This document shows positions 3,645 through 51,346 of a stretch of 64,000 nucleotides of DNA, one piece after another. The notes under the pieces were generated by a model that was not told the DNA's origin, made no database searches, and saw only the letters and a list, made by a program, of their open reading frames with translations. Every line of letters starts with the position of its first letter. Positions within the stretch are counted from its first letter, which is position 1. The stretch is taken from positions 72,887 through 136,886 of the forward strand of contig JAZDIN010000004.1 in assembly GCA_043804895.1 (NCBI GenBank), in the 5' to 3' direction. The stretch comes from Candidatus Altiarchaeota archaeon (GTDB lineage Archaea > Altiarchaeota > Altiarchaeia > IMC4 > SCGC-AAA252-I15). A program made the position numbers and the translations under genes.

Positions 3645-4475
3645 TTACATTCGTGATTTTTTCTGCCTTTCCACCCGCTCAACAAGTTTTTTAGCGTAGT
3701 CAAGCCCAGATATGTCAGAGGCGACATCGATTATCAGGTTGTGGTGGCTGCCAAGAAGCAGAGTCTTTCTTTCCTTTACCCGTATGTTGGTTGTGAGCAT
3801 GCTATTTCTTATGTCCGTGTATTTCCGCAGAACATCGACTGCATGCCGGTCCTCGACAAGTTGCTTCCACCTGCTTTCCCTGAGTTCTGGTCTCTGCAGG
3901 TATTCCTGCAGGGTGTGGTATTCCAGTCCGCTTGAAATGGGCGACAGGCTTTCGGATTCGCAGACGACCACATGAGGTTCGGTCAGCTTTGCCATCTTAG
4001 TGGCTAAGACGAGTCTTCGGAAGTCATCGATTAAATGCAAGTCTGGGGCAGGCCCTGCAACATCCCTTTCATATGCTTCTGTCACGATGATGTCGGCATT
4101 CACAAGCTGCACCCCCTTGTAGAGGAGTTCACTGCAATGAGCCCTCATTTCAGGGTTTTTGCTGGCGATTACGCAATCGCTAGGCTCCGGGTGGGGGCCA
4201 ATCTCCAGTTGGGAGGACCCGTCATATTCCTTGTACCTGAGGCAGAATTCTGGCAGGACGCCGCCCCAGATTATTCGTTTAGCCCCTGAGAGGGACTCAT
4301 CAATAGACTTTTTAGGGTAGGCGACGCCTGCTTCGACCAGGATTATGGTGAAGACTGCGCATGTTTCCGGCGATGTGACAGTGATGAAAGGGTGCTGGAA
4401 TTCCTTCACCCCGAGGTCACCTACTTCGCTGCCTGACCCTTTATTATCATCATCTGGTGGTTTGAGGTTGCTCAT
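3645..4475 (-). CDS. hypothetical protein (276 aa)
   Basis: Long ORF with ordinary composition. No motif I can name. Confidence 0.5.
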   Translation of the reverse strand: MSNLKPPDDDNKGSGSEVGDLGVKEFQHPFITVTSPETCAVFTIILVEAGVAYPKKSIDESLSGAKRIIWGGVLPEFCLRYKEYDGSSQLEIGPHPEPSDCVIASKNPEMRAHCSELLYKGVQLVNADIIVTEAYERDVAGPAPDLHLIDDFRRLVLATKMAKLTEPHVVVCESESLSPISSGLEYHTLQEYLQRPELRESRWKQLVEDRHAVDVLRKYTDIRNSMLTTNIRVKERKTLLLGSHHNLIIDVASDISGLDYAKKLVERVERQKKSRM

Positions 4476-4824: not shown

Positions 4825-5346
4825 TTACAGTTTTTTTATCATATATATTATCTTTTCCTCCAGCCCATCCTGGCGGACGTACTCGGACTCTGACAACTCT
4901 TTGAAGCCCATCTTCTGCCAGAATTGTAGGGCCGGGGTGTTTTTCATGTTCACGTTCAGTATAACGTGCGTCGCCTCCTTAGTCCGGAGGTGCTCCTGCG
5001 TGGTCTTGTAGAGCATCGTCCCCAGGCCACGTCGTCTGAGAGGCCGTTCTATGACGATCAGGTCTACTTCAGTCAGTTTCTTTACCTTCTTGAATGGGTT
5101 AAACGTTGGTGTCCGGATGGTTATGAATCCGATTATCGTGTTGTTATCCTTTAGGACGAAGGTTTCGCATTCGCTGTCAGTGAGCGTCTTAGCCCATGGT
5201 ATCTCGCCGTCTATGTAACGGTAGTTTGCGTCTCCTACGCCGGCGGAGACCCTGTCTTCGTTGAACTCCATGTAGAGTTTTAGTATCCCCTTAGAGTCCC
5301 CAGGGGCAGCTAAGCTAACCTGCATAGTGTATATTTCACCGTACAT
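4825..5346 (-). CDS. GNAT-family N-acetyltransferase
   Basis: Acetyl-CoA loop RPLRRRGLGTMLY (Q/RxxGxG). Start trimmed to MYGEIYTMQV... (ATG at 5346), because the track extension runs through a structured repeat. Confidence 0.75.
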   Translation of the reverse strand: MYGEIYTMQVSLAAPGDSKGILKLYMEFNEDRVSAGVGDANYRYIDGEIPWAKTLTDSECETFVLKDNNTIIGFITIRTPTFNPFKKVKKLTEVDLIVIERPLRRRGLGTMLYKTTQEHLRTKEATHVILNVNMKNTPALQFWQKMGFKELSESEYVRQDGLEEKIIYMIKKL

Positions 5347-6433: not shown

Positions 6434-6453
6434 GTGCCACCGACAGGTGGCAC
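6434..6453. terminator. 8-bp GC-rich hairpin between the convergent DGGGPS gene and tRNA-Thr
   Basis: GTGCCACC-GACA-GGTGGCAC. A terminator role is only inferred, since archaeal termination usually relies on oligo-T. Confidence 0.3.
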
Positions 6454-6516
6454 AAGTCCGTTCCGGGGGGATCAGGGTTAACTTAAAACTGAGGGGGCGG
6501 TAGCCCCCTGCGGTTT

Positions 6517-6723
6517 AGCCTCAGGCGAGAATTGAACTCGCCACCTCGTGCTGTTTGTAGCTTGAATTGACCCGGTTTTTCTTTCTTTGAACCCGAGGGC
6601 CTCACCGCCGAGCCTTTTAGGCTCGGGTGTGTGTCTGAGACTTTTGTCTCAGCCACATTCTTTCTTGCGAAGAAAGAAAGGGGCTCTACCAAGCACGCGC
6701 TCTACCTACTGAGCTACTGAGGC
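6517..6723 (-). tRNA. tRNA-Thr(GGU) with a 134-nt intron after position 37
   Basis: Manual cloverleaf: GCCTCAG-TA-GCTC-AGTAGGTA-GAGC-G-CGTGC-TTGGTA|intron|A-GCACG-AGGTG-GCGAG-TTCAATT-CTCGC-CTGAGGC-T. No encoded CCA. TTATAA box about 28 nt upstream (6751-6756). Confidence 0.85.
6553..6686 (-). other. tRNA-Thr intron (134 nt) containing the multi-hairpin module
   Basis: Begins GAGCCCCTTTCTTTC..., homologous to the start of the tRNA-Glu intron. Contains ATGTGG-CTGAGACAAAAGTCTCAG-ACACACACC-CGAGCCTAAAAGGCTCG. The exact splice junctions are inferred from the cloverleaf. Confidence 0.7.
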
Positions 6724-6872
6724 TTTGTTGATGTTGCCAATTCGCCAGCCTTATAAGGCCTTTATTGAGGCGATTTGGTTCCTATTCTTTAGGTATTTGT
6801 GGTTTATATGTTCCGGGGTGAGTGTCCCTTAGGGGTGTGGGGTTTTTTATTGCGTTGCGCTTATTATCTACC

Positions 6873-7153: not shown

Positions 7154-8218
7154 TCAGTTCATCCTGTAGCGTAGTTTGGCTGCCATTCCCCCGAGTGAGC
7201 TTAACCTCTGTCCAGCTTCTGATTCGCTGTTGATTAGGTGGACTTTGCCTGCTGAGTTTGTGACTTGGTTCATCAGCGGTTCCGCGTGCGCTCTTTCGGC
7301 GAAGAAGAGTGCGTCGGTCACGAGGAGCATTTCAGCGGCGCCCGCGTTGACTGCGTCTGCCACTTCCTTCCGACCGTATGCTGCAAGTCCGGTGTCCTTG
7401 CCTATCTGTTTTAGTATGTCTTCGACGAGCCTGATGTCTTGGACTGAGTTGACTTCCTCGATAGTCCTTTGTATTGCTTCCCGTTTGAGGACCTCCTGTA
7501 TTCCGTTGCGTCCTGCGCTGCCTGTGTCTTCGATTGCGCATTTTCCAGCTAGTTCTTGATTTTCTTCCTTGAGGAATTTGAAGTAGTTGTTCTTCTCAAA
7601 TCCTGGCCCGGATAGTATCGCGTTGCCAGCGTTCTCCTTTTCCATGACGTTCCCGATGAGTTGGGTGAGTTGCCGGTAGAATTCGGCTTTGCGGGTCTCC
7701 CTTCCCTTCGCATCGTATTTTCCGCCGATGTTTGAGCCTATGTCATAGTATTCTAGCTTGGATTCCCTAAGGAGGGCCAGCGTGGCTTCTCCCTCATCAA
7801 GCGACACTATTATGACCTTAGGTCGTAGGGTGCTTTTGACCGCGTCGTTGAGGCGGTCCATCTCCGTCTTAGCCCACCGCTCCTTTATGATTGTCAACTG
7901 AGTGTCTGCGTCGACGTTGAGCGTGTGGTGGCTGCCTTGGCTGACTATGTCCTCGGGGCCTTCCTCGATTGTGCCTGAGACTCGCAGGACGCTGGTGTCT
8001 GATTTGAAGTCGGTCTTCTCGACTTTGACTGTCAATGTGATTGTCTTGCGTTCTCCTCCTGAGCTTTTGGTGTCGTCCTTGTCTTTGATGCGCCTCTGGC
8101 TCTTCCCCTTCACCAGGTCCCCGGAAGCGATGACCTGGCTGAGGTACCACAGGTCGTCGAGGCTCTCGCACCTGACCCTGACGAGCCCATGCCGCAAGTC
8201 CTTGTACTCTATCCTCAT
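7154..8218 (-). CDS. pelA: pelota (Dom34) mRNA surveillance / ribosome rescue factor
   Basis: N-terminus MRIEYKDLRHGLVRVRCESLDDLWYLSQVI. 354 aa with eRF1-like three-domain length, and C-terminal GGMAAKLRY. Confidence 0.88.
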   Translation of the reverse strand: MRIEYKDLRHGLVRVRCESLDDLWYLSQVIASGDLVKGKSQRRIKDKDDTKSSGGERKTITLTVKVEKTDFKSDTSVLRVSGTIEEGPEDIVSQGSHHTLNVDADTQLTIIKERWAKTEMDRLNDAVKSTLRPKVIIVSLDEGEATLALLRESKLEYYDIGSNIGGKYDAKGRETRKAEFYRQLTQLIGNVMEKENAGNAILSGPGFEKNNYFKFLKEENQELAGKCAIEDTGSAGRNGIQEVLKREAIQRTIEEVNSVQDIRLVEDILKQIGKDTGLAAYGRKEVADAVNAGAAEMLLVTDALFFAERAHAEPLMNQVTNSAGKVHLINSESEAGQRLSSLGGMAAKLRYRMN

Positions 8219-18670: not shown

Positions 18671-18739
18671 TGCTCCCTTCGGGATTTCCCACAAGACGTT
18701 CGTCTTGCTTAAATCCCGAAGGCGTACAGTGCATGCACC
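18671..18739 (+). repeat. 69-nt palindromic element built on the tRNA-Glu 3' end (copy 1)
   Basis: TGCTCCCTTCGGGATTTCCCACAAGACGTTCGTCTTGCTTAAATCCCGAAGGCGTACAGTGCATGCACC. The first 17 nt equal the reverse complement of the tRNA-Glu 3' end. Nearly identical to 20423-20491. Confidence 0.85.
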
Positions 18740-18771
18740 CTCGAAGAGGGTGCTATCCGCTTCGGTGCGAT

Positions 18772-18856
18772 GCGAAGTTGCTCTGGCAACTAGCATCCCA
18801 AAATCGCCCGGCGATTTTGAGGATCTGACGCGTCAGCTCAATGCTCCCTTCGAGCC
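18772..18856 (-). repeat. right arm of the inverted repeat flanking the GNAT-toxin cassette
   Basis: Reverse complement: GGCTCGAAGGGAGCATTGAGCTGACGCGTCAGATCCTCAAAATCGCCGGGCGATTTTGGGATGCTAGTTGCCAGAGCAACTTCGC. It also shares GGGAGCATTGAGCTGACGC with the sequence just 3' of tRNA-Glu. Confidence 0.8.
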
Positions 18857-19064
18857 ATAAACAGTTTGTTCAATTAAGGGGAAACTCCGGCAGAAAAGGG
18901 CACATTTTGGCTCAACAACCTCCCTTCCATCCCGGCCAAATAACAAGGTTGGATGAAGGGTCAGGTGTAGTATTTATAGTTGAGATATGCTATATGTTAG
19001 CAATAACCTCCCCATCTTTAGGTAGGCTTGTCCTATCTAACGATGGGCCCTCTGTGTGCTTCTG

Positions 19065-19610
19065 ATGAAACGGGCTGTTATTTTCATAGACGGTAGCAAC
19101 TTCTACCACTCCTGTTTGGACTCATTGGGCGCCGCCGACGTCAACTTCGGCAAGTTCGCCGCCAAACTATGCAGGAGCTATGAGCTTGTTGAAATCAGGT
19201 ACTATAACGCATCCATAAATCAGCAGATGGAGCCGGAGAAGTACAGGGAACAGCAGAGGTTCTTCGCCAAGGTGGCCAAGATACCGAAGGTGAAACTCAT
19301 ACTCGGGAAACTGAAGGCACGATTTGAGACGTGCACCCAATGCAGCAAGAAGACCAGGTATTTCGTGGAGAAAAATACCGACGTAAACATAGCAATTGAC
19401 CTGGTTGACTTGGCCCACAAGAATGTGTACGATATAGCGGTTATGGTCACAGGAGACGGCGATTTCAGCGGAGCAGTCAGGTTGGTCAGAACCTTCAGCA
19501 AGGAAGTCGAACACGCAAGGTTCAGGAAGAACTACTCGACAGAACTCAACAGGGCCTGCAACAGGGAAATAATACTAGACGAGGAATACATGAGAGATTG
19601 TTTACTATAA
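19065..19610 (+). CDS. NYN-domain (LabA/DUF88-like) putative RNase
   Basis: AVIFIDGSNFYHS and DVNIAIDLVDLAHKNVYDIAVMVTGDGDFSGAV motifs. Start taken at MKRAV. Confidence 0.8.
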   Translation: MKRAVIFIDGSNFYHSCLDSLGAADVNFGKFAAKLCRSYELVEIRYYNASINQQMEPEKYREQQRFFAKVAKIPKVKLILGKLKARFETCTQCSKKTRYFVEKNTDVNIAIDLVDLAHKNVYDIAVMVTGDGDFSGAVRLVRTFSKEVEHARFRKNYSTELNRACNREIILDEEYMRDCLL

Positions 19611-19684
19611 CCCACCCTTCCAGGCTAATGACTTGGGTTCCTCGAAGACCCAAGACTGCAGACAAATTCCAACCGTAAAGATAT

Positions 19685-19700
19685 TGCTCCCTTCGGGATT
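19685..19700 (+). repeat. 16-nt copy of the tRNA-Glu 3' end
   Basis: TGCTCCCTTCGGGATT matches 21407-21422 exactly. It is followed by a truncated T-arm-like CCGGGTTCGAGTC. Confidence 0.8.
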
Positions 19701-19781
19701 CCTGTACCGGGTTCGAGTCTCAAATTTTAATTACTAATTAAAGATGAGACATGCAAGTATAAAAATTCTCGGACATAATGA

Positions 19782-20027
19782 CTATCGATACACTTTGTCT
19801 CTATGTTCAAAACAGTTTATGAGTATCCTATCCTGTTCAACTCTATAAATAATCCTAAATGGTGGGACTCGTAGACTTCTGTGGTTTTTTAGTTCATGCT
19901 TCAGTGGCTTTCCCGCATCTGGTTGTTGTTCGAGCTTCTTGATTTGTTTGATTATCCTCAATCGAGTTGCATTATCCTTTATCTTCTTATACTCTTCCGC
20001 AAACTCCTGTGAGAAAATTATTTCCAT
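19782..20027 (-). CDS. relE: RelE/ParE-family toxin
   Basis: 81 aa. KPLKHELKNHRSLRVPPFRIIYRVEQDRILINCFEHRDKVY is the typical RelE C-terminal pattern. Downstream of an AbrB-type antitoxin. Confidence 0.8.
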   Translation of the reverse strand: MEIIFSQEFAEEYKKIKDNATRLRIIKQIKKLEQQPDAGKPLKHELKNHRSLRVPPFRIIYRVEQDRILINCFEHRDKVYR

Positions 20028-20030
20028 GAC

Positions 20031-20306
20031 TCATGCTATCAGAAGGTGATCTATCTCTTCATCTCCCATCTCCGTACTCGCCTTAACCACTTTACCGGAC
20101 TTTATCTGGGATTCGCTTTTAGTTATGCGCTCAATCAACTTTATTTCCTCCGATAACGCTGCATTATTTACCAACTTCAGGAGGATGTTACTCCCTTTGT
20201 TGAATACTATAAACTTTGATTGCGGCCCCAATCCGGCGTCCCTCCTAACTTCAGCAGGTATAACTATCTGACCATTCTGGCTCATCTTTGTTATAGCAAC
20301 TTCCAT
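20031..20306 (-). CDS. AbrB/MazE-type antitoxin
   Basis: MSQNGQIVIPAEVRRDAGLGPQSKF swapped-hairpin motif. Start taken at MEVAITK. Confidence 0.75.
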   Translation of the reverse strand: MEVAITKMSQNGQIVIPAEVRRDAGLGPQSKFIVFNKGSNILLKLVNNAALSEEIKLIERITKSESQIKSGKVVKASTEMGDEEIDHLLIA

Positions 20307-20422
20307 ATACAACACCTACAATACGTTTTAATATTAAAACATAGCATATTTGAGTTTAAAAATAGGGATTTACATAAAATCCCCCCTTCAGGATATATCC
20401 GAGTTTCGAACCCTCATAGGGA

Positions 20423-20491
20423 TGCTCCCTTCGGGATTTCCCGCAAGACATTCGTCTTGCTTAAATCCCGAAGGCGTACAGTGCATGCACC
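20423..20491 (+). repeat. 69-nt palindromic element built on the tRNA-Glu 3' end (copy 2)
   Basis: TGCTCCCTTCGGGATTTCCCGCAAGACATTCGTCTTGCTTAAATCCCGAAGGCGTACAGTGCATGCACC. Differs from copy 1 at two positions. Confidence 0.85.
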
Positions 20492-20607
20492 TTGACGGCA
20501 TAAAACATATGCTGATTGATACTATCCAAGAGTTAGTGAACATTATTCATTTTTATTCTTTCATTGCAGGTAATTAACTAGTCAGCATAAGATGGAGGAC
20601 TCTAAAG

Positions 20608-21078
20608 ATGGATAAACACATCACCTTCGGAATCTGGACGGCATTCGCGGTCTTCGCGATTGGAATACTAGTAGGCGCAATGATGATGGGGAACGCAATC
20701 CCAGCAGGACAATTCAGCACTCCTGACACTTCAACACAAAGATCAGTTGAGCCGGCTAACATAATACCAACCCCCCTTGAAGGGGAAGAAGATGATGGGT
20801 GTTGTATTTATAAGGATGAGACGTATTCGGGGGAGACGACCGAGGAAGAATGCGAGGATGATGAGGGCACCTGGTATGATGAAACGTGTGAAGAGATAAT
20901 ATGTGGTTTGTATGTTGGGAACCCTACGCTGGAGGAAGAGTGCATTACTGCCGAAGAATGTGAAGAAAAAAATGGCGGTGCGATAAATAAGATATGTCCA
21001 AGACTGGGTTCAGGTGACCCGCTAGGCGCCATAGACATAGAGGAGGACATAGTCTGTTGTTTACACCCGGGTGATTAG
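20608..21078 (+). CDS. membrane-anchored acidic Cys-rich protein
   Basis: N-terminal TM helix (FGIWTAFAVFAIGILVGAMMMG), then a Glu/Asp-rich region with 10 Cys (GCCIY, EECEDDEG, CEEIICG, EECITAEECEE, IVCC). No family recognised. Confidence 0.5.
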   Translation: MDKHITFGIWTAFAVFAIGILVGAMMMGNAIPAGQFSTPDTSTQRSVEPANIIPTPLEGEEDDGCCIYKDETYSGETTEEECEDDEGTWYDETCEEIICGLYVGNPTLEEECITAEECEEKNGGAINKICPRLGSGDPLGAIDIEEDIVCCLHPGD

Positions 21079-21312
21079 GTTTCGCTCAATTAGAGTGGCC
21101 ATCCTCTTGGGGAAGAAAGTGCCCGCGGAAAGAAAACACCTAGTGCATGTGTCTTCGAAGAAGTCGTTATTCATTCGTCTTATGCGTTCTGATGGGTCGA
21201 AAGACCCATCAACACCCGTAGTTTTCGCGAGCCTTTTGATAAAAGGCTCAATGCTCGCTTCGAGGAGCCCTTCCTTTGCGAAAGAAAGCGTATAGTGCAT
21301 GTACCTTCTGAT

Positions 21313-21360
21313 ATGTGGCGTAGCCACTGGCTACGACACGCGCCCGAGACAATGTCTCGG
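21313..21360 (+). repeat. multi-hairpin module copy, inside a hairpin-rich tract of about 340 nt (21060-21406)
   Basis: ATGTGG-CGTAGCCACTGGCTACG-ACACGCGC-CCGAGACAATGTCTCGG. Confidence 0.7.
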
Positions 21361-21406
21361 TCGCGAGGCACCATCCGCTCCAGTGCGAGCTGATGCGTCA
21401 GCTCAA

Positions 21407-21568
21407 TGCTCCCTTCGGGATTTGAACCCGAGTCGCCGGATTTCTCCAGGCAGGACCTAACGGTTCTGCCACCCGTTTTTCTTGGGGGGTGAAGCACCTT
21501 TCTTTTTTGAAAAGAAAGGGGCTCTCTGCGAAAGTCCGGTATGATAGGCCGGTCTACACTAAGGGAGC
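21407..21568 (-). tRNA. tRNA-Glu(UUC) with an 87-nt intron in the anticodon loop
   Basis: GCTCCCT-TA-GTGTAGACCGGCCTATCAT-A-CCGGA-CTTTCG|intron|A-TCCGG-CGAC-TCGGG-TTCAAAT-CCCGA-AGGGAGC-A. The D-arm GTGTAGNCCGGCCNATCAT is the archaeal tRNA-Glu signature. The junction could be 37/38 or 38/39. Confidence 0.85.
21442..21528 (-). other. tRNA-Glu intron (87 nt)
   Basis: CAGAGAGCCCCTTTCTTTTCAAAAAAGAAAGG...AAGAAAAACGGGTGG.... Both ends resemble the tRNA-Thr intron (GAGCCCCTTTCTTTC... and ...AAGAAAAACCGGGTC). Confidence 0.7.
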
Positions 21569-21629
21569 GTAGATTTGTTTTGTTGGTTATCCTCTCAGTA
21601 TATCTGAGATTCATATTAGATTAGTGTAA

Positions 21630-21713
21630 TCCGGTATGATAGGCCGGTATCTGGCTCGAAGAGCCGGATATGCGCGACCGCCGCAGCGTCGCATGCATCT
21701 ACACTAAGGGAGC
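21630..21713 (-). pseudogene. partial tRNA-Glu copy B: positions 1-31 with a 50-nt insert in the D-loop and no 3' half
   Basis: GCTCCCTTAGTGTAGA-[50 nt, 21648-21697, two hairpins]-CCGGCCTATCATACCGGA, then TTACACT and the hairpin AATCTCAGATATACTGAGAGGATA. The exon parts are identical to the complete gene. Confidence 0.6.
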
Positions 21714-21768
21714 GTTTGTGCGCTCTTTTTATCTATCCTCTCCGCGTGGAGATTCATTGCTCCAGTAG

Positions 21769-21850
21769 TCCGGTATGATAGGCCGGTGTCGGGCATGGGA
21801 GTGCCCGAGACGCCCGACGCGGATGCGTCGGATGCGTCTACACTAAGGGA
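21769..21850 (-). pseudogene. partial tRNA-Glu copy A: positions 3-31 with a different 50-nt D-loop insert
   Basis: (AA)TCCCTTAGTGTAGA-[50 nt, 21787-21836, two hairpins]-CCGGCCTATCATACCGGA, then CTACTGG and the hairpin AATGAATCTCCACGCGGAGAGGATA. The first two acceptor nucleotides do not match. Confidence 0.6.
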
Positions 21851-21878
21851 TTGGTTTTGTTATTAGGGGTCTTGTTTT

Positions 21879-21887
21879 AATATAAAA
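21879..21887 (-). promoter_or_regulatory. strong TATA box driving the tRNA-Glu array
   Basis: The minus strand reads AAAATTCTTTTATATTAAAAC (purine-rich BRE-like stretch plus TTTTATATT), about 27 nt upstream of copy A. Confidence 0.55.
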
Positions 21888-21933
21888 GAATTTTGGGCAC
21901 GGAGCTTGGAGGATAGGCCTTGCTCCGTGGTTT

Positions 21934-22242
21934 TTATTTGGTTAGTTCTATTTCGATGTGCACGCCGTCTGGTACTTGTATGCGCATTATTTGGCGTAGG
22001 CTTCTTTCGTTGGCGTCTATGTCTATTATTCTCTTGTGTATGCGCATGTTCCAGCGGTCCCATGTTTCTGTGCCGTCTCCGCTTGGTGCTTTGCGGGTGG
22101 TTATTTTCATCTGTTTGGTTGGTAGGGGGATTGGTCCGCTGTATTTTGTGCCTGTTTTTTTGGTGACGTCCACTATCTGGTTGCATACGTCGTCCAGTTG
22201 TCCTGTTTCCTTCCCGATTAGTATTATGCGTGCTTTCTCCAT
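21934..22242 (-). CDS. rps10: 30S ribosomal protein S10 (uS10)
   Basis: GPIPLPTK...[15 protein letters not shown]. 102 aa. Follows EF-1alpha as in archaeal str clusters. Confidence 0.95.
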
Positions 22243-22272: not shown

Positions 22273-23544
<1,272 letters not shown>

Positions 23545-45103: not shown

Positions 45104-45177
45104 CCAGCGGGAAACCAATGCCAAGAGCCGTTCGTGAGCGTTTTAACCCGGTGAGTTAAATATATTCTCTGAATGAA

Positions 45178-45334
45178 CCGCAGCCTTTAGGCTGCGGTAC
45201 AACGGACACTAGGTGTCCGTGTACACGAACTCCAAAAGGAGTTCGTTGTATTCCAAATACGCTTAAAATGCCAAACAGCCAAACAAACACAGGAGGTGTA
45301 AGCGAGTAGGCTGTAGTGCCATCGCGTATTTGTA
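45178..45334 (+). repeat. three-hairpin module plus conserved leader upstream of 45335
   Basis: CCGCAGCCTTTAGGCTGCGG, CGGACACTAGGTGTCCG and GAACTCCAAAAGGAGTTC, followed by ...AAAATGCCAAA...AGGAGGTGTAAGCGAGTA...CGCGTATTTGTAATGA. Paralogous to 50194-50347. Confidence 0.75.
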
Positions 45335-46987
45335 ATGACCGAGGTGAAATCGAGGCTGCACGGCGGCATGGAGGAGAAGAAGAAGAAAGGCGCTGAGATG
45401 CTCAGACTCATCCTCGACAGCGTGAAAGCCAACGGCGTCCTATCCGAGAGCGAACTGGCCGGGAAAGTCGGATTAGACAAGAAAAGCCTCTCAAAATACG
45501 TCGAATACCTGAAGGAGAAGGAGCTCATCGCAGTCAAAAAGAGGATATTCGGCGAAGCTGAGATATCACTGACCGGTAAGGCATCCATTAGGCCGAAGCA
45601 GGAACACCCCGCCGAGGAGAAGAAACAGGAGATTCCGCCAGAAGTGCAGAAGGCTATCAGCACCATAAAATCGTGGGAGGCGCAAAGGAGCGGGACAGAA
45701 CCCCAGCCTGAACCTCCTGCGGCACCGGAACCTGAGGAGAAAGTAGGAGAACCCCCAGCAGAACCTGTGAAGACTGAGCCTACGCAACCAGTTGAACCAG
45801 CACCGGGTATTGAACCTAAATTTGAGCTGGCAAAGCCCATGCCAAAAACCAAGCCAGAGGAACCACCAGCTCAACCGCCCGCGCCAGTCCAGAAGGTGGA
45901 AACTCAGGAGAAGAAACCTGATGAGCCGGCCGGTGTTGGGGGAGGCGAGAAGGTCGTGCCAGAGACCGCTCAGGAGTTGAGGGAGGTCGTTAAAAGCCTG
46001 GTCACAGACTTCATCGGTGTGATGAGACTTTATGGGGAGGCGCAGGGGCAGTCGTACACCGCGGGACTCCTGATAGACAAGGGCGAGATAGTCGCAGTCT
46101 CCTTCGAGCACATGGACACCGTGGAACTCTCATACGGCGATGAGGCGATGAAGGAAATCCAGTCAAAGTTCATGGGCACCAAAGGCGACCTGGAGATATA
46201 CGAGATGAGCGAAGACGACCTCAACGCCTCGCTACGCGACAACGCGAACTACATGCTCTCCGCCCCGGTGAAGCTCTCCACTATGAACATCAGGATAAAG
46301 TCGCGGCTGAAGGAGGAGCCGGAAGCCGCGCCAAAAGGCTCACTCTTCTCCAAGCTCAAGGGAGCCCTCACAACACAAGACACCTCCGTAAAGGAGGAGC
46401 GGAAGAAGATGATGAGGGACCTGGAGAAGAAGGAGGGTAAAATCAACCTCGTCGAATTCGCCAGGAGCCTCACAATAGACCCGCTCAAAGCTAAACGATT
46501 CGAAGAGTTGAGAAAGCTCAGACAGGGAGTGGGCTCACAGAGGGGTGAGACTGAGGGGAGGAAAGCCGAACGGCTGCAGGAGCTGAAACTCCAACAAGCC
46601 ACGGCAGCGGCCGTAGGGATACTAGGCGGGGGGAACGCGAAGGAGGCGAGGCTTGAGGAGATGAGGCAGGCGAGGGCAGAGCCGATTAAAGTGGAGGTTG
46701 AGGAGAAAATCCCGACACAGGCGGTCCAAGAAGGCCATAAGGTGGAGACGAACATAGACAAGCTGTACTCGCTCGTCGAATCACAAGGTAAACTCAGGAT
46801 AAACGACGCCCTAGCAGCCAAACTCAAAGTCAGCAAAACGCAGATAGAGGAATGGGCGATGATACTGGAGGAACACGGCCTCCTCGAGCTCAAGTACCCG
46901 ACGATGGGGGAACCGGAGATAATTAGCGCGCACCCAAGCAAAAACGTTAAAAACGAGGCAGCAGATGGAAAGAAAAAACAGCAGTAA
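45335..46987 (+). CDS. pilus-locus protein: N-terminal wHTH, Pro/Glu-rich linker, central domain, C-terminal wHTH-like domain
   Basis: LRLILDSVKANGVLSESELAGKVGLDKKSLSKYVEYLKEKELI (wHTH). A PEPPAAPEPEEK...PAQPPAPVQ linker. C-terminus IDKLYSLVESQGKLRINDALAAKLKVSKTQIEEWAMILEEHGLLELKYP. Precedes and overlaps the ATPase gene. Confidence 0.6.
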   Translation: MTEVKSRLHGGMEEKKKKGAEMLRLILDSVKANGVLSESELAGKVGLDKKSLSKYVEYLKEKELIAVKKRIFGEAEISLTGKASIRPKQEHPAEEKKQEIPPEVQKAISTIKSWEAQRSGTEPQPEPPAAPEPEEKVGEPPAEPVKTEPTQPVEPAPGIEPKFELAKPMPKTKPEEPPAQPPAPVQKVETQEKKPDEPAGVGGGEKVVPETAQELREVVKSLVTDFIGVMRLYGEAQGQSYTAGLLIDKGEIVAVSFEHMDTVELSYGDEAMKEIQSKFMGTKGDLEIYEMSEDDLNASLRDNANYMLSAPVKLSTMNIRIKSRLKEEPEAAPKGSLFSKLKGALTTQDTSVKEERKKMMRDLEKKEGKINLVEFARSLTIDPLKAKRFEELRKLRQGVGSQRGETEGRKAERLQELKLQQATAAAVGILGGGNAKEARLEEMRQARAEPIKVEVEEKIPTQAVQEGHKVETNIDKLYSLVESQGKLRINDALAAKLKVSKTQIEEWAMILEEHGLLELKYPTMGEPEIISAHPSKNVKNEAADGKKKQQ

Positions 46988-50187: not shown

Positions 50188-50193
50188 AATAAA

Positions 50194-50347
50194 CCGCAGC
50201 CTTTAGGCTGCGTATTCCAATGTGGCCGAGACAAATGTCTCGGACACACACCGGAGGCTAAGAGCCTCCGATGTGATACGCTCAAAATGCCAAAAAGCAA
50301 AAAACAGATAGGAGGTGCAAGCGAGTAAGAATACTCGCGTATTTGTA
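50194..50347 (+). repeat. three-hairpin module plus conserved leader upstream of 50348
   Basis: CCGCAGCCTTTAGGCTGCG, ATGTGG, CCGAGACAAATGTCTCGG, ACACACACC, GGAGGCTAAGAGCCTCC, then ...AAAATGCCAAA...AGGAGGTGCAAGCGAGTAAGAATACTCGCGTATTTGTAATGA. Confidence 0.8.
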
Positions 50348-51346
50348 ATGAGTTTCGTGAAGATGCTGTCCCGGATGCTCCCGAGGAAGATGAGGGACAA
50401 CTACCACCAACTGCTCGGGTGCTCCACAGTCAAGGGAGACCCGGACTCGTTCATAGGGATGGCCCAGGTCATCGGGATAGTGGCGAGCTTCACCATCACC
50501 CTCTTCACAGGAAACTACAAGACAGTACCACCCCTCCTAGTGTTCGTCGCATCGTTCATGGTCATAGAATTCCTCATATACCTCTGGCTGGTCCTGAACG
50601 TGAGCGCCAAGGGACAGCAGGTGGAGGCCGCCCTCCCGGATGCACTCCAGCTGATGTCATCCAACATCAGAGCAGGCCTCACCACAGACAAGGCCCTCCT
50701 CCTTGCAGCAAGACCAGAGTTCGGGGCCCTTGAGGAGGAGCTAAGGAGGGTGGGGAAGGAGACGATGGCAGGCAGAAGCCTCGCCGACGCCCTCTCAAGG
50801 ATGACTCTCCACATAAGGTCCAACGACCTGGACAGGACCATAGAGTTGCTCATACACAGCCTAAAATCCGGAGGACAGCTCGCAGACCTCCTCGACCAGA
50901 CAGCAAACGACCTGAGGGACCAGCAGATAGTCCAAAAGGAGATAAGCGCCAGCGTCCTCATGTACGTCCTTTTCATATTCATCGCCCTTGCGATAGGCGC
51001 CCCAGTGCTCTTCTCCATGTCATCGTTCCTAGTCGAACTCCTCTCCACGAACATGCAACTGATAGCGAAGGAGATGCCGAAGGACTTCGGCGCCCACGGC
51101 GGGTCCATGCCGATAAAGATGACCGGCACCACAGTCAGCACCACCTTCCTCCACACCTACGCCATAATCTCGATAACGCTATCGTGCGTATTCGGAGGCC
51201 TCATAATCGGGATGATACTCAAAGGAGAGGAGAAGGAGGGAGTCAAATACATACCAATCATGCTCTTCGTAGCGCTGCTGCTATTCTTCTTGGCCACGTT
51301 TGTGTTGAAGTCGACAATCGGCGGCATGATGCCGATGGGCGATTAG
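50348..51346 (+). CDS. T2SSF-domain membrane protein (TadC/FlaJ C-half-like)
   Basis: [22 protein letters not shown]...LADALSRM...[11 protein letters not shown]. The ATG at 50348 is chosen by analogy with the conserved leader of 45335; the track's GTG at 50315 lies inside the AGGAGGTG block. Confidence 0.8.

Follow-up and report, generated by a model that had tools for sequence, protein, structure and literature searches.

We analysed a 64,000-nt stretch of DNA from a Candidatus Altiarchaeota archaeon, referred to as the window, in which two partial copies of the 5' part of a tRNA-Glu gene preceded the complete gene. The locus was read on the minus strand, on which all of its features lie. 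The order was S10, a single TATA box, copy A, copy B, and the intron-bearing tRNA-Glu(UUC) gene. A sequence-only reading had proposed the layout from the TATA box to the gene, with its coordinates, and direct reading confirmed both. The explanation that we favoured, tentatively and with slightly less than even confidence, was that A and B are cargo-less tRNA-Glu modules of the attachment-site type, which arose by recombination in the D-loop region and which would be transcribed as a leader and discarded. The anatomy of the modules, the boundaries of the repeats, their conservation, the array of cassettes located 3' of the gene, and the absence of splice motifs at the modules were observed directly. 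The comparison set was the S10-to-tRNA-Glu interval of 15 other Altiarchaeota genomes or populations, which are designated here by L numbers.

The modules shared one layout. An ATGAA-stem-GGATA hairpin and a spacer were followed by tRNA positions 1-16, a palindromic insert of two hairpins (hp1 and hp2), positions 17-31, and an antisense tail. The modules and the gene were in tandem 139 and 145 nt apart, and the unit size was 125-145 bp. Module A began with tRNA positions 3-16 (TCCCTTAGTGTAGA, 21837-21850), which matched the gene at 14/14 bases, while G1 and C2 were replaced by AA. Its 50-nt insert at D-loop position 16/17 (21787-21836) consisted of hp1, with a 2-nt AU bulge, and hp2. Positions 17-31 of the tRNA followed (CCGGCCTATCATACCGGA, 21769-21786; 18/18 bases identical to the gene), and this 18-mer can self-fold as CCGG-loop-CCGG. 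The tail of A (CTACTGGAGCA, 21758-21768) contained CTAC, which is antisense to tRNA positions 12-15. Module B carried the complete positions 1-16 (GCTCCCTTAGTGTAGA, 21698-21713; 16/16 bases), a 50-nt insert at the same 16/17 position (21648-21697), the same 18-mer (21630-21647; 18/18 bases), and a tail (TTACACTAATCTAAT, 21615-21629). The identity of the exon parts claimed by the earlier reading was thus found at every base. Its description of the inserts, which have the same position and the two-hairpin architecture but differ in sequence, was also correct, although the folding was significant for A (z = -4.65) and not for B alone (z = -0.44). A and B differed in half of their sequence.

Each module was followed by a leader hairpin, as the sequence-only reading had noticed. 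The hairpin after A (ATGAA-TCTCC-ACGC-GGAGA-GGATA, 21757-21734) was identified by a motif scan and by comparison of its instances, and that after B (ATGAA-TCTCAG-ATATA-CTGAGA-GGATA, 21614-21588) by the same two approaches and by folding. An A-rich spacer (21714-21733), read from the sequence, lay between the first hairpin and module B. The spacer ahead of the real gene (21569-21587) was orthologous to the spacer of L162 and L196 (..CCAATCTAC), and the intact gene started 60 nt downstream of copy B. The distance from GGATA to the next GCTCCC was 17-22 nt in most instances and 1 and 31-33 nt in others. Only hairpins and spacers were found between the 5' copies, with no conserved open reading frame (ORF).

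The repeats were far from chance. The 18-mer occurred perfectly three times, where dinucleotide shuffles expected 0.08 occurrences, and none of 100 shuffles reached three. The 33-nt 3' half of the tRNA occurred once in the window. This meant that the claim of a single 3' half held for the full 33 nt; it did not hold for the 3' end itself, of which perfect 16-nt copies recurred downstream. The heptamers that had been reported after the truncation points (CTACTGG and TTACACT) were present, but they belonged to longer tails that were antisense to the 5' region of the tRNA. In the tail of B, ACACTAA within TTACACTAA was the perfect reverse complement of tRNA positions 7-13, and the first nine bases of the tail paired with positions 7-15 through eight Watson-Crick pairs and one G-U pair. 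In the predicted fold, this pairing can close a helix around three inner hairpins. The tail at the equivalent position in module L164u (CTACACTAA) was the exact reverse complement of positions 7-15, and GGGAG(C) in L196u, L162u2, L161u, and L002u paired with positions 2-6. Since the tails are antisense to the tRNA 5' region, each module can close on itself around its inner hairpins. The last seven bases of the A tail together with AAT of the next hairpin (CTGGAGCAAT) also resembled the end of the intron and the first bases of exon 2 (CTGGAGAAAT).

The modules lay between the promoter and the gene. A, B, and the gene were preceded by a single strong promoter element, the TATA-like box TTTTATATT (21879-21887), and a T-rich TATA-like element was found at the equivalent position in all related loci. 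Transcription would be expected to start near 21857, judging from the usual archaeal spacing between TATA box and start. No TATA-like box was found at a proper distance before copy B or before the gene. Internal promoters in the spacers were considered and dropped by eye: the A-rich stretch was about 8 nt too close, and the distances ranged from 1 to 33 nt.

The complete tRNA-Glu(UUC) gene (21407-21568) consisted of exon 1 (positions 1-37, 21529-21568, placed by gene calling and a bulge-helix-bulge (BHB) scan), an 87-nt intron at 37/38 (21442-21528), and exon 2 (positions 38-73, 21407-21441), and CCA was not encoded. The intron opened with the GAGCCCCTTTCTTTT hairpin shared with a tRNA-Thr intron. 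The BHB scan of 21300-21950 gave one coherent motif, with cuts after 21529 and after 21442, which was canonical. It had an outer helix of 5 bp, a central helix of 4 bp (CTTT/GGAG), and two 3-nt bulges, CG|C and AA|A. The anticodon-loop intron proposed earlier was thereby confirmed, and the gene showed the features of a canonical archaeal intron-bearing tRNA, namely an intron at 37/38 in an hBHBh' motif and exons that form a cloverleaf. The spliced tRNA was 75 nt long, and its sequence was the same as that of the intronless genes in L162 and L164. The searches with ARAGORN and for BHB motifs that the sequence-only reading had proposed were both run. Default ARAGORN and Rfam at gathering thresholds gave no match anywhere in the window, the tRNA-Glu gene included. 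When introns were allowed, ARAGORN detected the gene, misplaced the intron by one or two bases, and labelled it Ser(aga). The same misplacement made the tRNA-Glu of L005 a tRNA-Stop, and the intronless orthologues were called Glu(ttc). An Rfam scan of 21250-22000 by E-value gave chance matches only, and no Rfam family fitted the modules. The window contained no clustered regularly interspaced short palindromic repeat array.

The comparison with related genomes, which had also been proposed, was made as well. At least one partial 5' tRNA-Glu copy was present between S10 and the gene in 11/15 related genomes, and the copy number varied from 0 to 2 among genera. L164 and L196 each had one module of the window type with a homologous insert of the A type. 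In L196 it consisted of positions 1-16 with two changes, the 50-nt insert, positions 17-31, and positions 32-37 with one change. L162 had two truncated modules, of which one (u1) was CTCCCT with positions 17-31 and the other positions 1-15 with a T-rich hairpin. L001 had positions 1-16, two other hairpins, and the ATGAA hairpin. L002 had diverged positions 1-16 with hp1, closed by a stem of its own (GCTCCCC/GGGGAGC). L161 carried a nearly whole pseudo-copy, in which a hairpin resembling that of an intron, a T-arm-like stem, and GGGAGCA were present. L003 carried a copy of positions 1-18 and beyond, in which L003u resembled a decayed copy of 1-37. L005 had two perfect 68-bp tandem units, L004 and L197 had diverged copies, and L170 had a 7-nt stub. 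Modules were absent from the interval in L166, L006, L081, and L082; the last is near-identical to L005, but its sequence ends 26 nt into the tRNA. L168 had the ATGAA hairpin alone, with no module. At the two tRNA-Thr genes examined in the same genomes, no partial copies were found. A metagenome scan with EF-1a gave at least two Altiarchaeota loci among the matches listed, and an exact look-up of the S10 protein for further relatives gave no match.

In nine genomes, the repeat block started at tRNA position 1 or 1-2 nt before it and ended at D-loop positions 15-18, with unrelated DNA behind. Because these boundaries repeat in nine genomes, they point to a recurrent, position-specific process. 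The outer copies were more eroded, as in window A, which lacks G1-C2, and in L162 u1, where only CTCCCT was left, and the same gradient was seen in the 3' array of L196. The promoter remained with the outermost copy. The relationships were mosaic: the head of A was closest to L164u and L196u, and the tail of B was closest to L164u.

The modules were also conserved. An alignment of window A, window B, L164u, and L196u gave a mean column identity of 81%, whereas the four-fold degenerate sites of EF-1a between these genomes were only 31-55% identical and therefore saturated. The promoter-proximal spacers of the same loci were unalignable. The first tRNA-like part matched the gene at 14/14 bases in A, 16/16 in B, 16/16 in L164u, and 14/16 in L196u, and positions 17-31 matched at 18/18, 18/18, 17/18, and 18/18, respectively. 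The divergence of the modules was thus not that of a neutral pseudogene (0.31-0.55 at four-fold sites), which argues that they are not freely decaying. This contradicted the scenario of inert, freely decaying scars that the sequence-only reading had offered as a possible outcome. The hairpin architecture was kept as well: hp1 retained its 2-nt bulge across five sequences, and hp2 consistently had 4 bp at its base and 5 bp at its top, with one mismatch between them. On the transcribed strand, the mismatch in hp2 was C.A in B and A.C at the same position in L164 and L196. Two compensatory pairs were found in hp1 of module B. The ATGAA-stem-GGATA hairpin was represented by eleven instances in six genomes, in which 43/44 cells were paired and the first four stem pairs were always pyrimidine-purine, being C-G in some instances and U-A in others. 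A relaxed scan for it over 1.46 Mb recovered a subset of the instances and one off-locus, chance-like match. As judged from these alignments, it appeared better supported than hp1 and hp2. In the module of L002, both strands of the stem GCTCCCC/GGGGAGC had diverged from those of the real acceptor stem.

The 3' side of the gene behaved as an integration site. The 16-nt tRNA 3' end AATCCCGAAGGGAGCA, from the T-loop to position 73, recurred in perfect copies at 20438-20423, 19700-19685, and 18686-18671. In this array (18671-21406, minus strand), the three further copies bounded three cassettes. An inverted core (GCCTTCGGGAT) and a hairpin preceded two of the three copies (at 20475-20465 and 18723-18713), and the middle copy had a different, type-2 lead-in (19721-19685). 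The segments of 984, 738, and 1014 nt contained a 156-aa Cys-rich ORF, MazE and ParE, and an NYN protein, respectively, of which MazE, ParE, and NYN were assigned with Pfam, and GNAT and MazE + PIN genes lay beyond 18671. The second cassette (MazE/ParE) had an orthologue in L162 that comes first after the tRNA there, which indicates that the window gained one tRNA-proximal cassette. Cargo-less units, each made of an inverted core copy (CCCTTCGGGAT), a hairpin, and a tRNA 3'-end copy, were found on the 3' side of three relatives, where they spanned about 70-130 nt. L196 had three in a row of about 70-90 nt (2477-2725), L164 had one (5136-5227) with a tyrosine integrase gene directly after it, and L170 had one (3972-4099). 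Tyrosine integrases adjoined tRNA-Glu in L164, L161, and L001, those of L161 and L001 being related to that of L164. In L002, only the first 61 codons of an L164-like integrase were found, immediately after the tRNA-Glu 3' end (7953-8135), and this may be a partitioned or truncated gene. No integrase was found in the window. L168 and L169 had an identical EF-1a and an identical S10-to-tRNA-Glu interval and became unrelated two bases past the tRNA 3' end (position 4854), which indicates that different DNA was integrated at the same site. From the cassette gain, the cargo-less units, the integrases, and the divergence of L168 and L169, we concluded that the tRNA-Glu gene is a live integration hot spot.

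The cores recognised by integrases run from the T-loop or the anticodon loop to the tRNA 3' end. The repeats here had this form on both sides of the gene, with positions 1-16 on the 5' side (ending at 15-18 in relatives) and the T-loop to position 73 on the 3' side. Because the 5' block extends, like integrase cores, from one end of the gene to a loop, the 5' copies may be the counterpart of the 3' attachment repeats. The module, read as a circle, looks like a circularly permuted attachment site with a tRNA-identical core and structured arms. Archaeal integrases are able to use either end of a tRNA gene, and pTN3-like integrases use the 5' half (PMC8371274). A 5' fragment of tRNA-Thr upstream of its gene and an attP that carries an extra insert have also been described (PMC3293823).

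We inferred the mechanism of recombination on the 5' side, the responsible enzyme, and the fate of the leader as follows. Insertion or unequal recombination in the D-loop region would push the promoter and the old 5' end outward, while a fresh 5' end would stay on the gene. Older 5' ends would thus be displaced furthest, so that copy A, the outermost, would be the most eroded. The 3' end showed the mirror image, with a 16-nt core, an inverted core, and a hairpin, and the units there carry toxin-antitoxin cargo. The 5' units would be kept small by selection, being located between the sole promoter and an essential single-copy tRNA. One transcript would run from near 21857 through A and B into the gene, and each module would fold shut on itself within it. 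RNase P would be expected to cut at G1 (21568) and the splicing endonuclease to excise the 87-nt intron, and the leader of about 290 nt would probably be discarded. Among the three options of the sequence-only reading, recombination scars came nearest to the evidence, with the same tRNA acting as an integration hot spot, but the modules were not inert.

Several observations weighed against this explanation. A mobile element lay between the 3' copies, as toxin-antitoxin cassettes in the window and as integrases in L164, L161, and L001, but no integrase, cargo, or larger element lay between the 5' copies in any of the 15 loci. An excisable element of only 125-145 bp would be unusually small. Four scans of viral contigs revealed no free element with such a site. 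They gave one chance match for the 18-mer, 23 for the leader hairpin, 63 for the start of the A-type insert, and 0 for the 3' palindrome. L003, L004, and L005 had 5' copies and neither 3' repeats nor an integrase within 3.5 kb. The 5' leaders were identical in population pairs with differing 3' sides, which suggested that the 5' modules are old, stable, and not visibly mobile. The conservation of 81% would be equally expected from purifying selection on an RNA. The covariation of hp1 and hp2 was weak, with two compensatory changes among mostly invariant pairs in four sequences, and 59/500 shuffles were equal. In addition, some modules resembled internally deleted copies of the whole gene, such as L161u with its T-arm-like stem and GGGAGCA and L196u with positions 32-37. 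Judging from L161u, L196u, and the A tail, partial gene duplication may be the origin even without recombination enzymes.

The main rival gave the modules a function, either within the leader of pre-tRNA-Glu or as small RNAs cleaved from it; they would have arisen by partial duplication of the gene and be under purifying selection for their RNA sequence and structure. We considered it possible but clearly less probable than the attachment-site explanation. Possible roles were the control of processing or transcription, protein-directed mimicry of the 5' half, and pairing with the tRNA 3' half. The modules lie on the transcribed strand between a conserved promoter and the gene, and their columns are 81% identical against 31-55% at four-fold sites. 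Their tRNA-like parts are near-perfect matches to the gene. The ATGAA-stem-GGATA hairpin covaries over its eleven instances, the hp1 bulge persists in five sequences, the L002 stem is altered on both sides, and the 5' leaders remain stable despite turnover on the 3' side. All of this would suit an RNA function. However, the architecture and the copy number vary, from 0 to 2 copies with positions 1-15 only or 17-31 only in some, and the modules are missing from L166, L006, L081, and L082. No Rfam family matched. The bottom strand folded slightly better than the transcribed strand, by 1-3 kcal/mol in 6/6 modules, which is a hint only because base composition could explain it, and hp2 has its A.C or C.A mismatch on the transcribed strand. 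T5-T6 runs act as archaeal terminators, and such runs were present inside the leaders of L005 and L164. Neither a K-turn nor C/D boxes were seen by eye, and ATGAA opened no conserved frame. A K-turn or C/D box in the ATGAA hairpin was dropped because its flanks gave a run of purine-purine mismatches without a 3-nt bulge and without any conserved CUGA. The possibility that ATGAA starts a leader peptide or the N-terminus of an integrase was dropped as the frames and stops vary among instances, and a CUC anticodon inside the hairpin was dropped as it was not conserved.

A broader form of the attachment-site explanation was also considered, and we regarded it as unlikely. The tRNA-Glu gene would be the anchor of a two-sided, integron-like recombination platform, in which both gene ends serve as attachment cores and small units, each with a folded palindrome and a core at its end, are inserted beside the gene. 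The 3' units would carry toxin-antitoxin and other cargo, and on the 5' side only cargo-less units would have survived and become a structured, conserved pre-tRNA leader. In a variant of it, the 5' units would be stable mimics of the tRNA-Glu 5' half with a cellular role. The acceptor stem makes the two gene ends mirror images, with AAGGGAGC read on opposite strands.

Somewhat more doubtful still was the explanation that the modules are plain tandem duplicates of the gene or its 5' exon, made by slippage or unequal crossing-over and now decaying and interrupted by palindromes. The sequence-only reading had proposed decaying duplicates of a multi-intron tRNA. Duplication fits the origin of some modules (L161 and L196u), whereas free decay is contradicted by the conservation. 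The almost full-length pseudo-copy of L161, the 32-37 segment retained with one change in L196u, the resemblance of the A tail to the intron end and exon-2 start, the likeness of L003u to a decayed copy of 1-37, the perfect tandem repeats of L005, and the erosion that grows outward all agree with simple duplication. However, the same module type is conserved in three genomes whose synonymous sites are saturated. Random deletion would not stop repeatedly at D-loop positions 15-16, nor would it create antisense tails.

The third option of the sequence-only reading took A and B for alternative 5' pieces joined to a shared 3' half. We considered it in a wider form, in which the tRNA is split or multi-intron, the D-loop insert is spliced out, and the 3' half is shared or lies elsewhere in the genome. 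It was very improbable and was rejected, as a BHB was present only at the 87-nt intron, no second 3' half was found in the 64 kb, and the modules persist in relatives whose gene is intronless. In its favour, A and B match the gene exactly in their exon-like parts, and a shared 3' half of tRNA-Glu exists in Nanoarchaeum equitans (PMC4033280). The A tail alone can imitate the exon-1/intron junction, with a 5-bp outer helix, 3/4 central pairs with one mismatch, and a 2-bp inner helix. The product would have the anticodon ACU and a body without G1-C2. The reading itself had doubted this option, on the grounds that the heptamers gave no sensible Glu anticodon and that A lacked the first two acceptor bases, and both doubts were borne out: the anticodons would be ACU in A and ACA in B, with an intact tRNA-Glu(UUC) gene adjacent. 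At the borders of the D-loop inserts (16/17) of A and B, neither a BHB nor a relaxed HBh' motif was found, and the inserts fold on themselves. A and B contained no tRNA sequence beyond position 31, and so not all exons of a multi-intron gene were present. A single TATA box stood ahead of A, in place of a promoter for each half. BHB matches other than that of the intron, which complementary leaders and trailers would form, were at chance level. Because tRNA-Glu is intronless in L162, L164, and L196, no 3' splice partner is available there, and the truncated modules of relatives (1-15 only, 17-31 only, or 7 nt only) are unfit as exons. The top long-range BHB matches, from module hairpins to the 3' trailer (21384-21335), had an estimated chance expectation of about 0.5 and combinations absent in relatives, and they were not counted. 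A BHB-like pairing of the A tail with the 5' end of the next copy was likewise judged to be at chance level.

An assembly artefact could be dismissed almost entirely: the window comes from a metagenome-assembled genome (MAG) and repeats are prone to misassembly, but half of the sequence is different between A and B, orthologues are present in at least nine further genomes, and the modules must be real because they were identical in independent assemblies from different samples and pipelines (L164 = L165, L162 = L163).

The genes upstream on the minus strand were EF-2, EF-1a (22273-23544), and S10 (21934-22242), and the EF-1a was 100% identical to a protein of a Candidatus Altiarchaeota MAG, with all its close relatives in Altiarchaeota. 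Directly after the S10 stop codon, a hairpin with the stem CACGGAGC/GCTCCGTG and the loop motif CCTATCCTCC (21898-21929) formed the upstream limit of the locus, and both hairpin and loop motif recurred in about ten related loci. The loop CCTATCCTCC resembled an anti-Shine-Dalgarno sequence. It also showed 6-10 bp of complementarity to the GAGG(G)ATAG sequence that flanks the ATGAA leader hairpins, with 10 bp in L196.

Related introns and hairpins were found elsewhere. The tRNA-Thr(GGU) gene of the window (6516-6724, minus strand) had a 134-nt intron. This intron and the tRNA-Glu introns of the window, L001, L003, L005, and L081 opened with GAGCC followed by a CCTTTCTTT...AAAGAAAGG hairpin, and this common start places them in one family. 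A 155-nt element in the style of this family was present in the tRNA-Glu leader of L164 (4716-4870), and short T-rich hairpins of the same style followed the 1-15 fragments in L005, L162, and L197. A GTGCCACC-N4-GGTGGCAC hairpin was shared by the tRNA-Thr trailer of the window (6434-6453) and the tRNA-Glu leader of L001 (7756-7775), and a CCGAGAC-N3/4-GTCTCGG hairpin by the tRNA-Glu trailer (21344-21360) and position 50226. Identical perfect GC-rich hairpins stood at unrelated places, including 45179-45196 and 50195-50243, and in different genomes. The window held 69 perfect hairpins of at least 7 bp, compared with about 21 in shuffles. The recurrence of the GC-rich hairpins suggests a family of small palindromic repeats. 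Two intergenic elements on the plus strand (45165-45335 and 50190-50350), each about 170 nt long and homologous to the other, lay just upstream of the ORFs 45335-46987 and 50315-51346. Each had three hairpins followed by a conserved ATACGCTYAAAATGCCAAA...AGGAGGTG.AAGCGAGTA...CGCGTATTTGTAATGA, and they may represent either a repeat or a leader that acts in cis-regulation.

Pieces of tRNA genes are commonly interpreted as footprints of integration or as clues to the origin of split and intron-bearing tRNAs. The Altiarchaeota series showed one essential tRNA gene gaining, keeping, and eroding its own pieces on both sides, and among these pieces were inserts inside tRNA-like sequence and representatives of a common intron family. 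The series therefore bears on the model that traces introns and fragments to recombination with mobile DNA (Sugahara et al. 2012) and on that in which disrupted tRNA genes interact with integration. The appeal of alternative 5' halves did not survive, and what remains is a moderately interesting locus for tRNA disruption and small recombination units in a phylum of uncultured archaea. There is also a practical warning, since tRNA finders missed or mislabelled the gene and its fragments could pass for split-tRNA halves. Should the modules turn out to be substrates of recombination or processed RNAs, they would represent a new class of small element tied to a tRNA gene. To our knowledge, tandem cargo-less modules between promoter and gene, with palindromic inserts, antisense tails, conservation across genera, and a mirror image in 3' cassettes, have not been described before.

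The locus was finally compared with known systems. The split tRNA-Glu of Nanoarchaeum equitans is alike in having several 5' pieces and one 3' part (PMC4033280). However, each of its halves is a gene of its own, a relaxed BHB is formed by complementary leaders, the anticodons are sensible, and no intact gene exists beside them, none of which applied here. The pTN3-like integrases of Thermococcales are alike in that attB is the 5' part of a tRNA gene and the displaced fragment lies upstream (PMC8371274). In that system, the integrase gene itself contains the attachment site and is split when the element integrates, after which the integrase promoter drives the tRNA (PMC8371274). In contrast, no integrase fragments flanked A or B, and the frames at ATGAA were not conserved. 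A tblastn search with two of the neighbouring integrases gave no match in the window or in any leader, so that no split integrase was present there. At the tRNA-Thr locus of Caldiarchaeum subterraneum, the complete gene is likewise preceded by a directly repeated 5' piece of itself (Sugahara et al. 2012, PMC3293823). In the model of that study, the tRNA-homologous stretch of one recombination partner contains an additional insert, and where the crossover falls determines which copy retains it (PMC3293823). There, 1.8 kb with a recombinase gene lie between the copies and the gene gains an intron, whereas here no such body was present and the displaced copies hold the insert.

Fragments of tRNA genes at integration hot spots are well known (PMC9897764). 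The archaeal attachment-site repeats are alike in being direct, identical to the terminal part of the tRNA, and bounded by the gene end and a loop (PMC9897764, PMC8371274). They also leave the gene intact, occur in several events at one tRNA, and have integrases nearby in relatives. However, those repeats have kilobases of element between the fragment and the gene, while the distance here was 105-111 nt from the D-loop junction to the next start. Unlike them, the copies here lie between promoter and gene, have a palindromic insert in the tRNA-like part, and are conserved across genera. Integron arrays differ in the core, which here was the tRNA 3' end and not GTTRRRY. They also differ in the recombinases, as those neighbouring tRNA-Glu were generic and XerA-like and well below the NCBIfam cut-offs (93-105 bits for the best, XerA-like model with a cut-off of 220, and 31-55 bits for the integron-integrase models with a cut-off of 265). 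The comparison covered the general layout of palindrome and core. In this respect, integron arrays, including those of archaeal MAGs (PMC9668308), resembled the 3' side in having small cassettes in a row, often with toxin-antitoxin genes. Their cassettes end in an imperfect palindrome and a core, additions occur next to the anchor, and cargo-less units are found among them.

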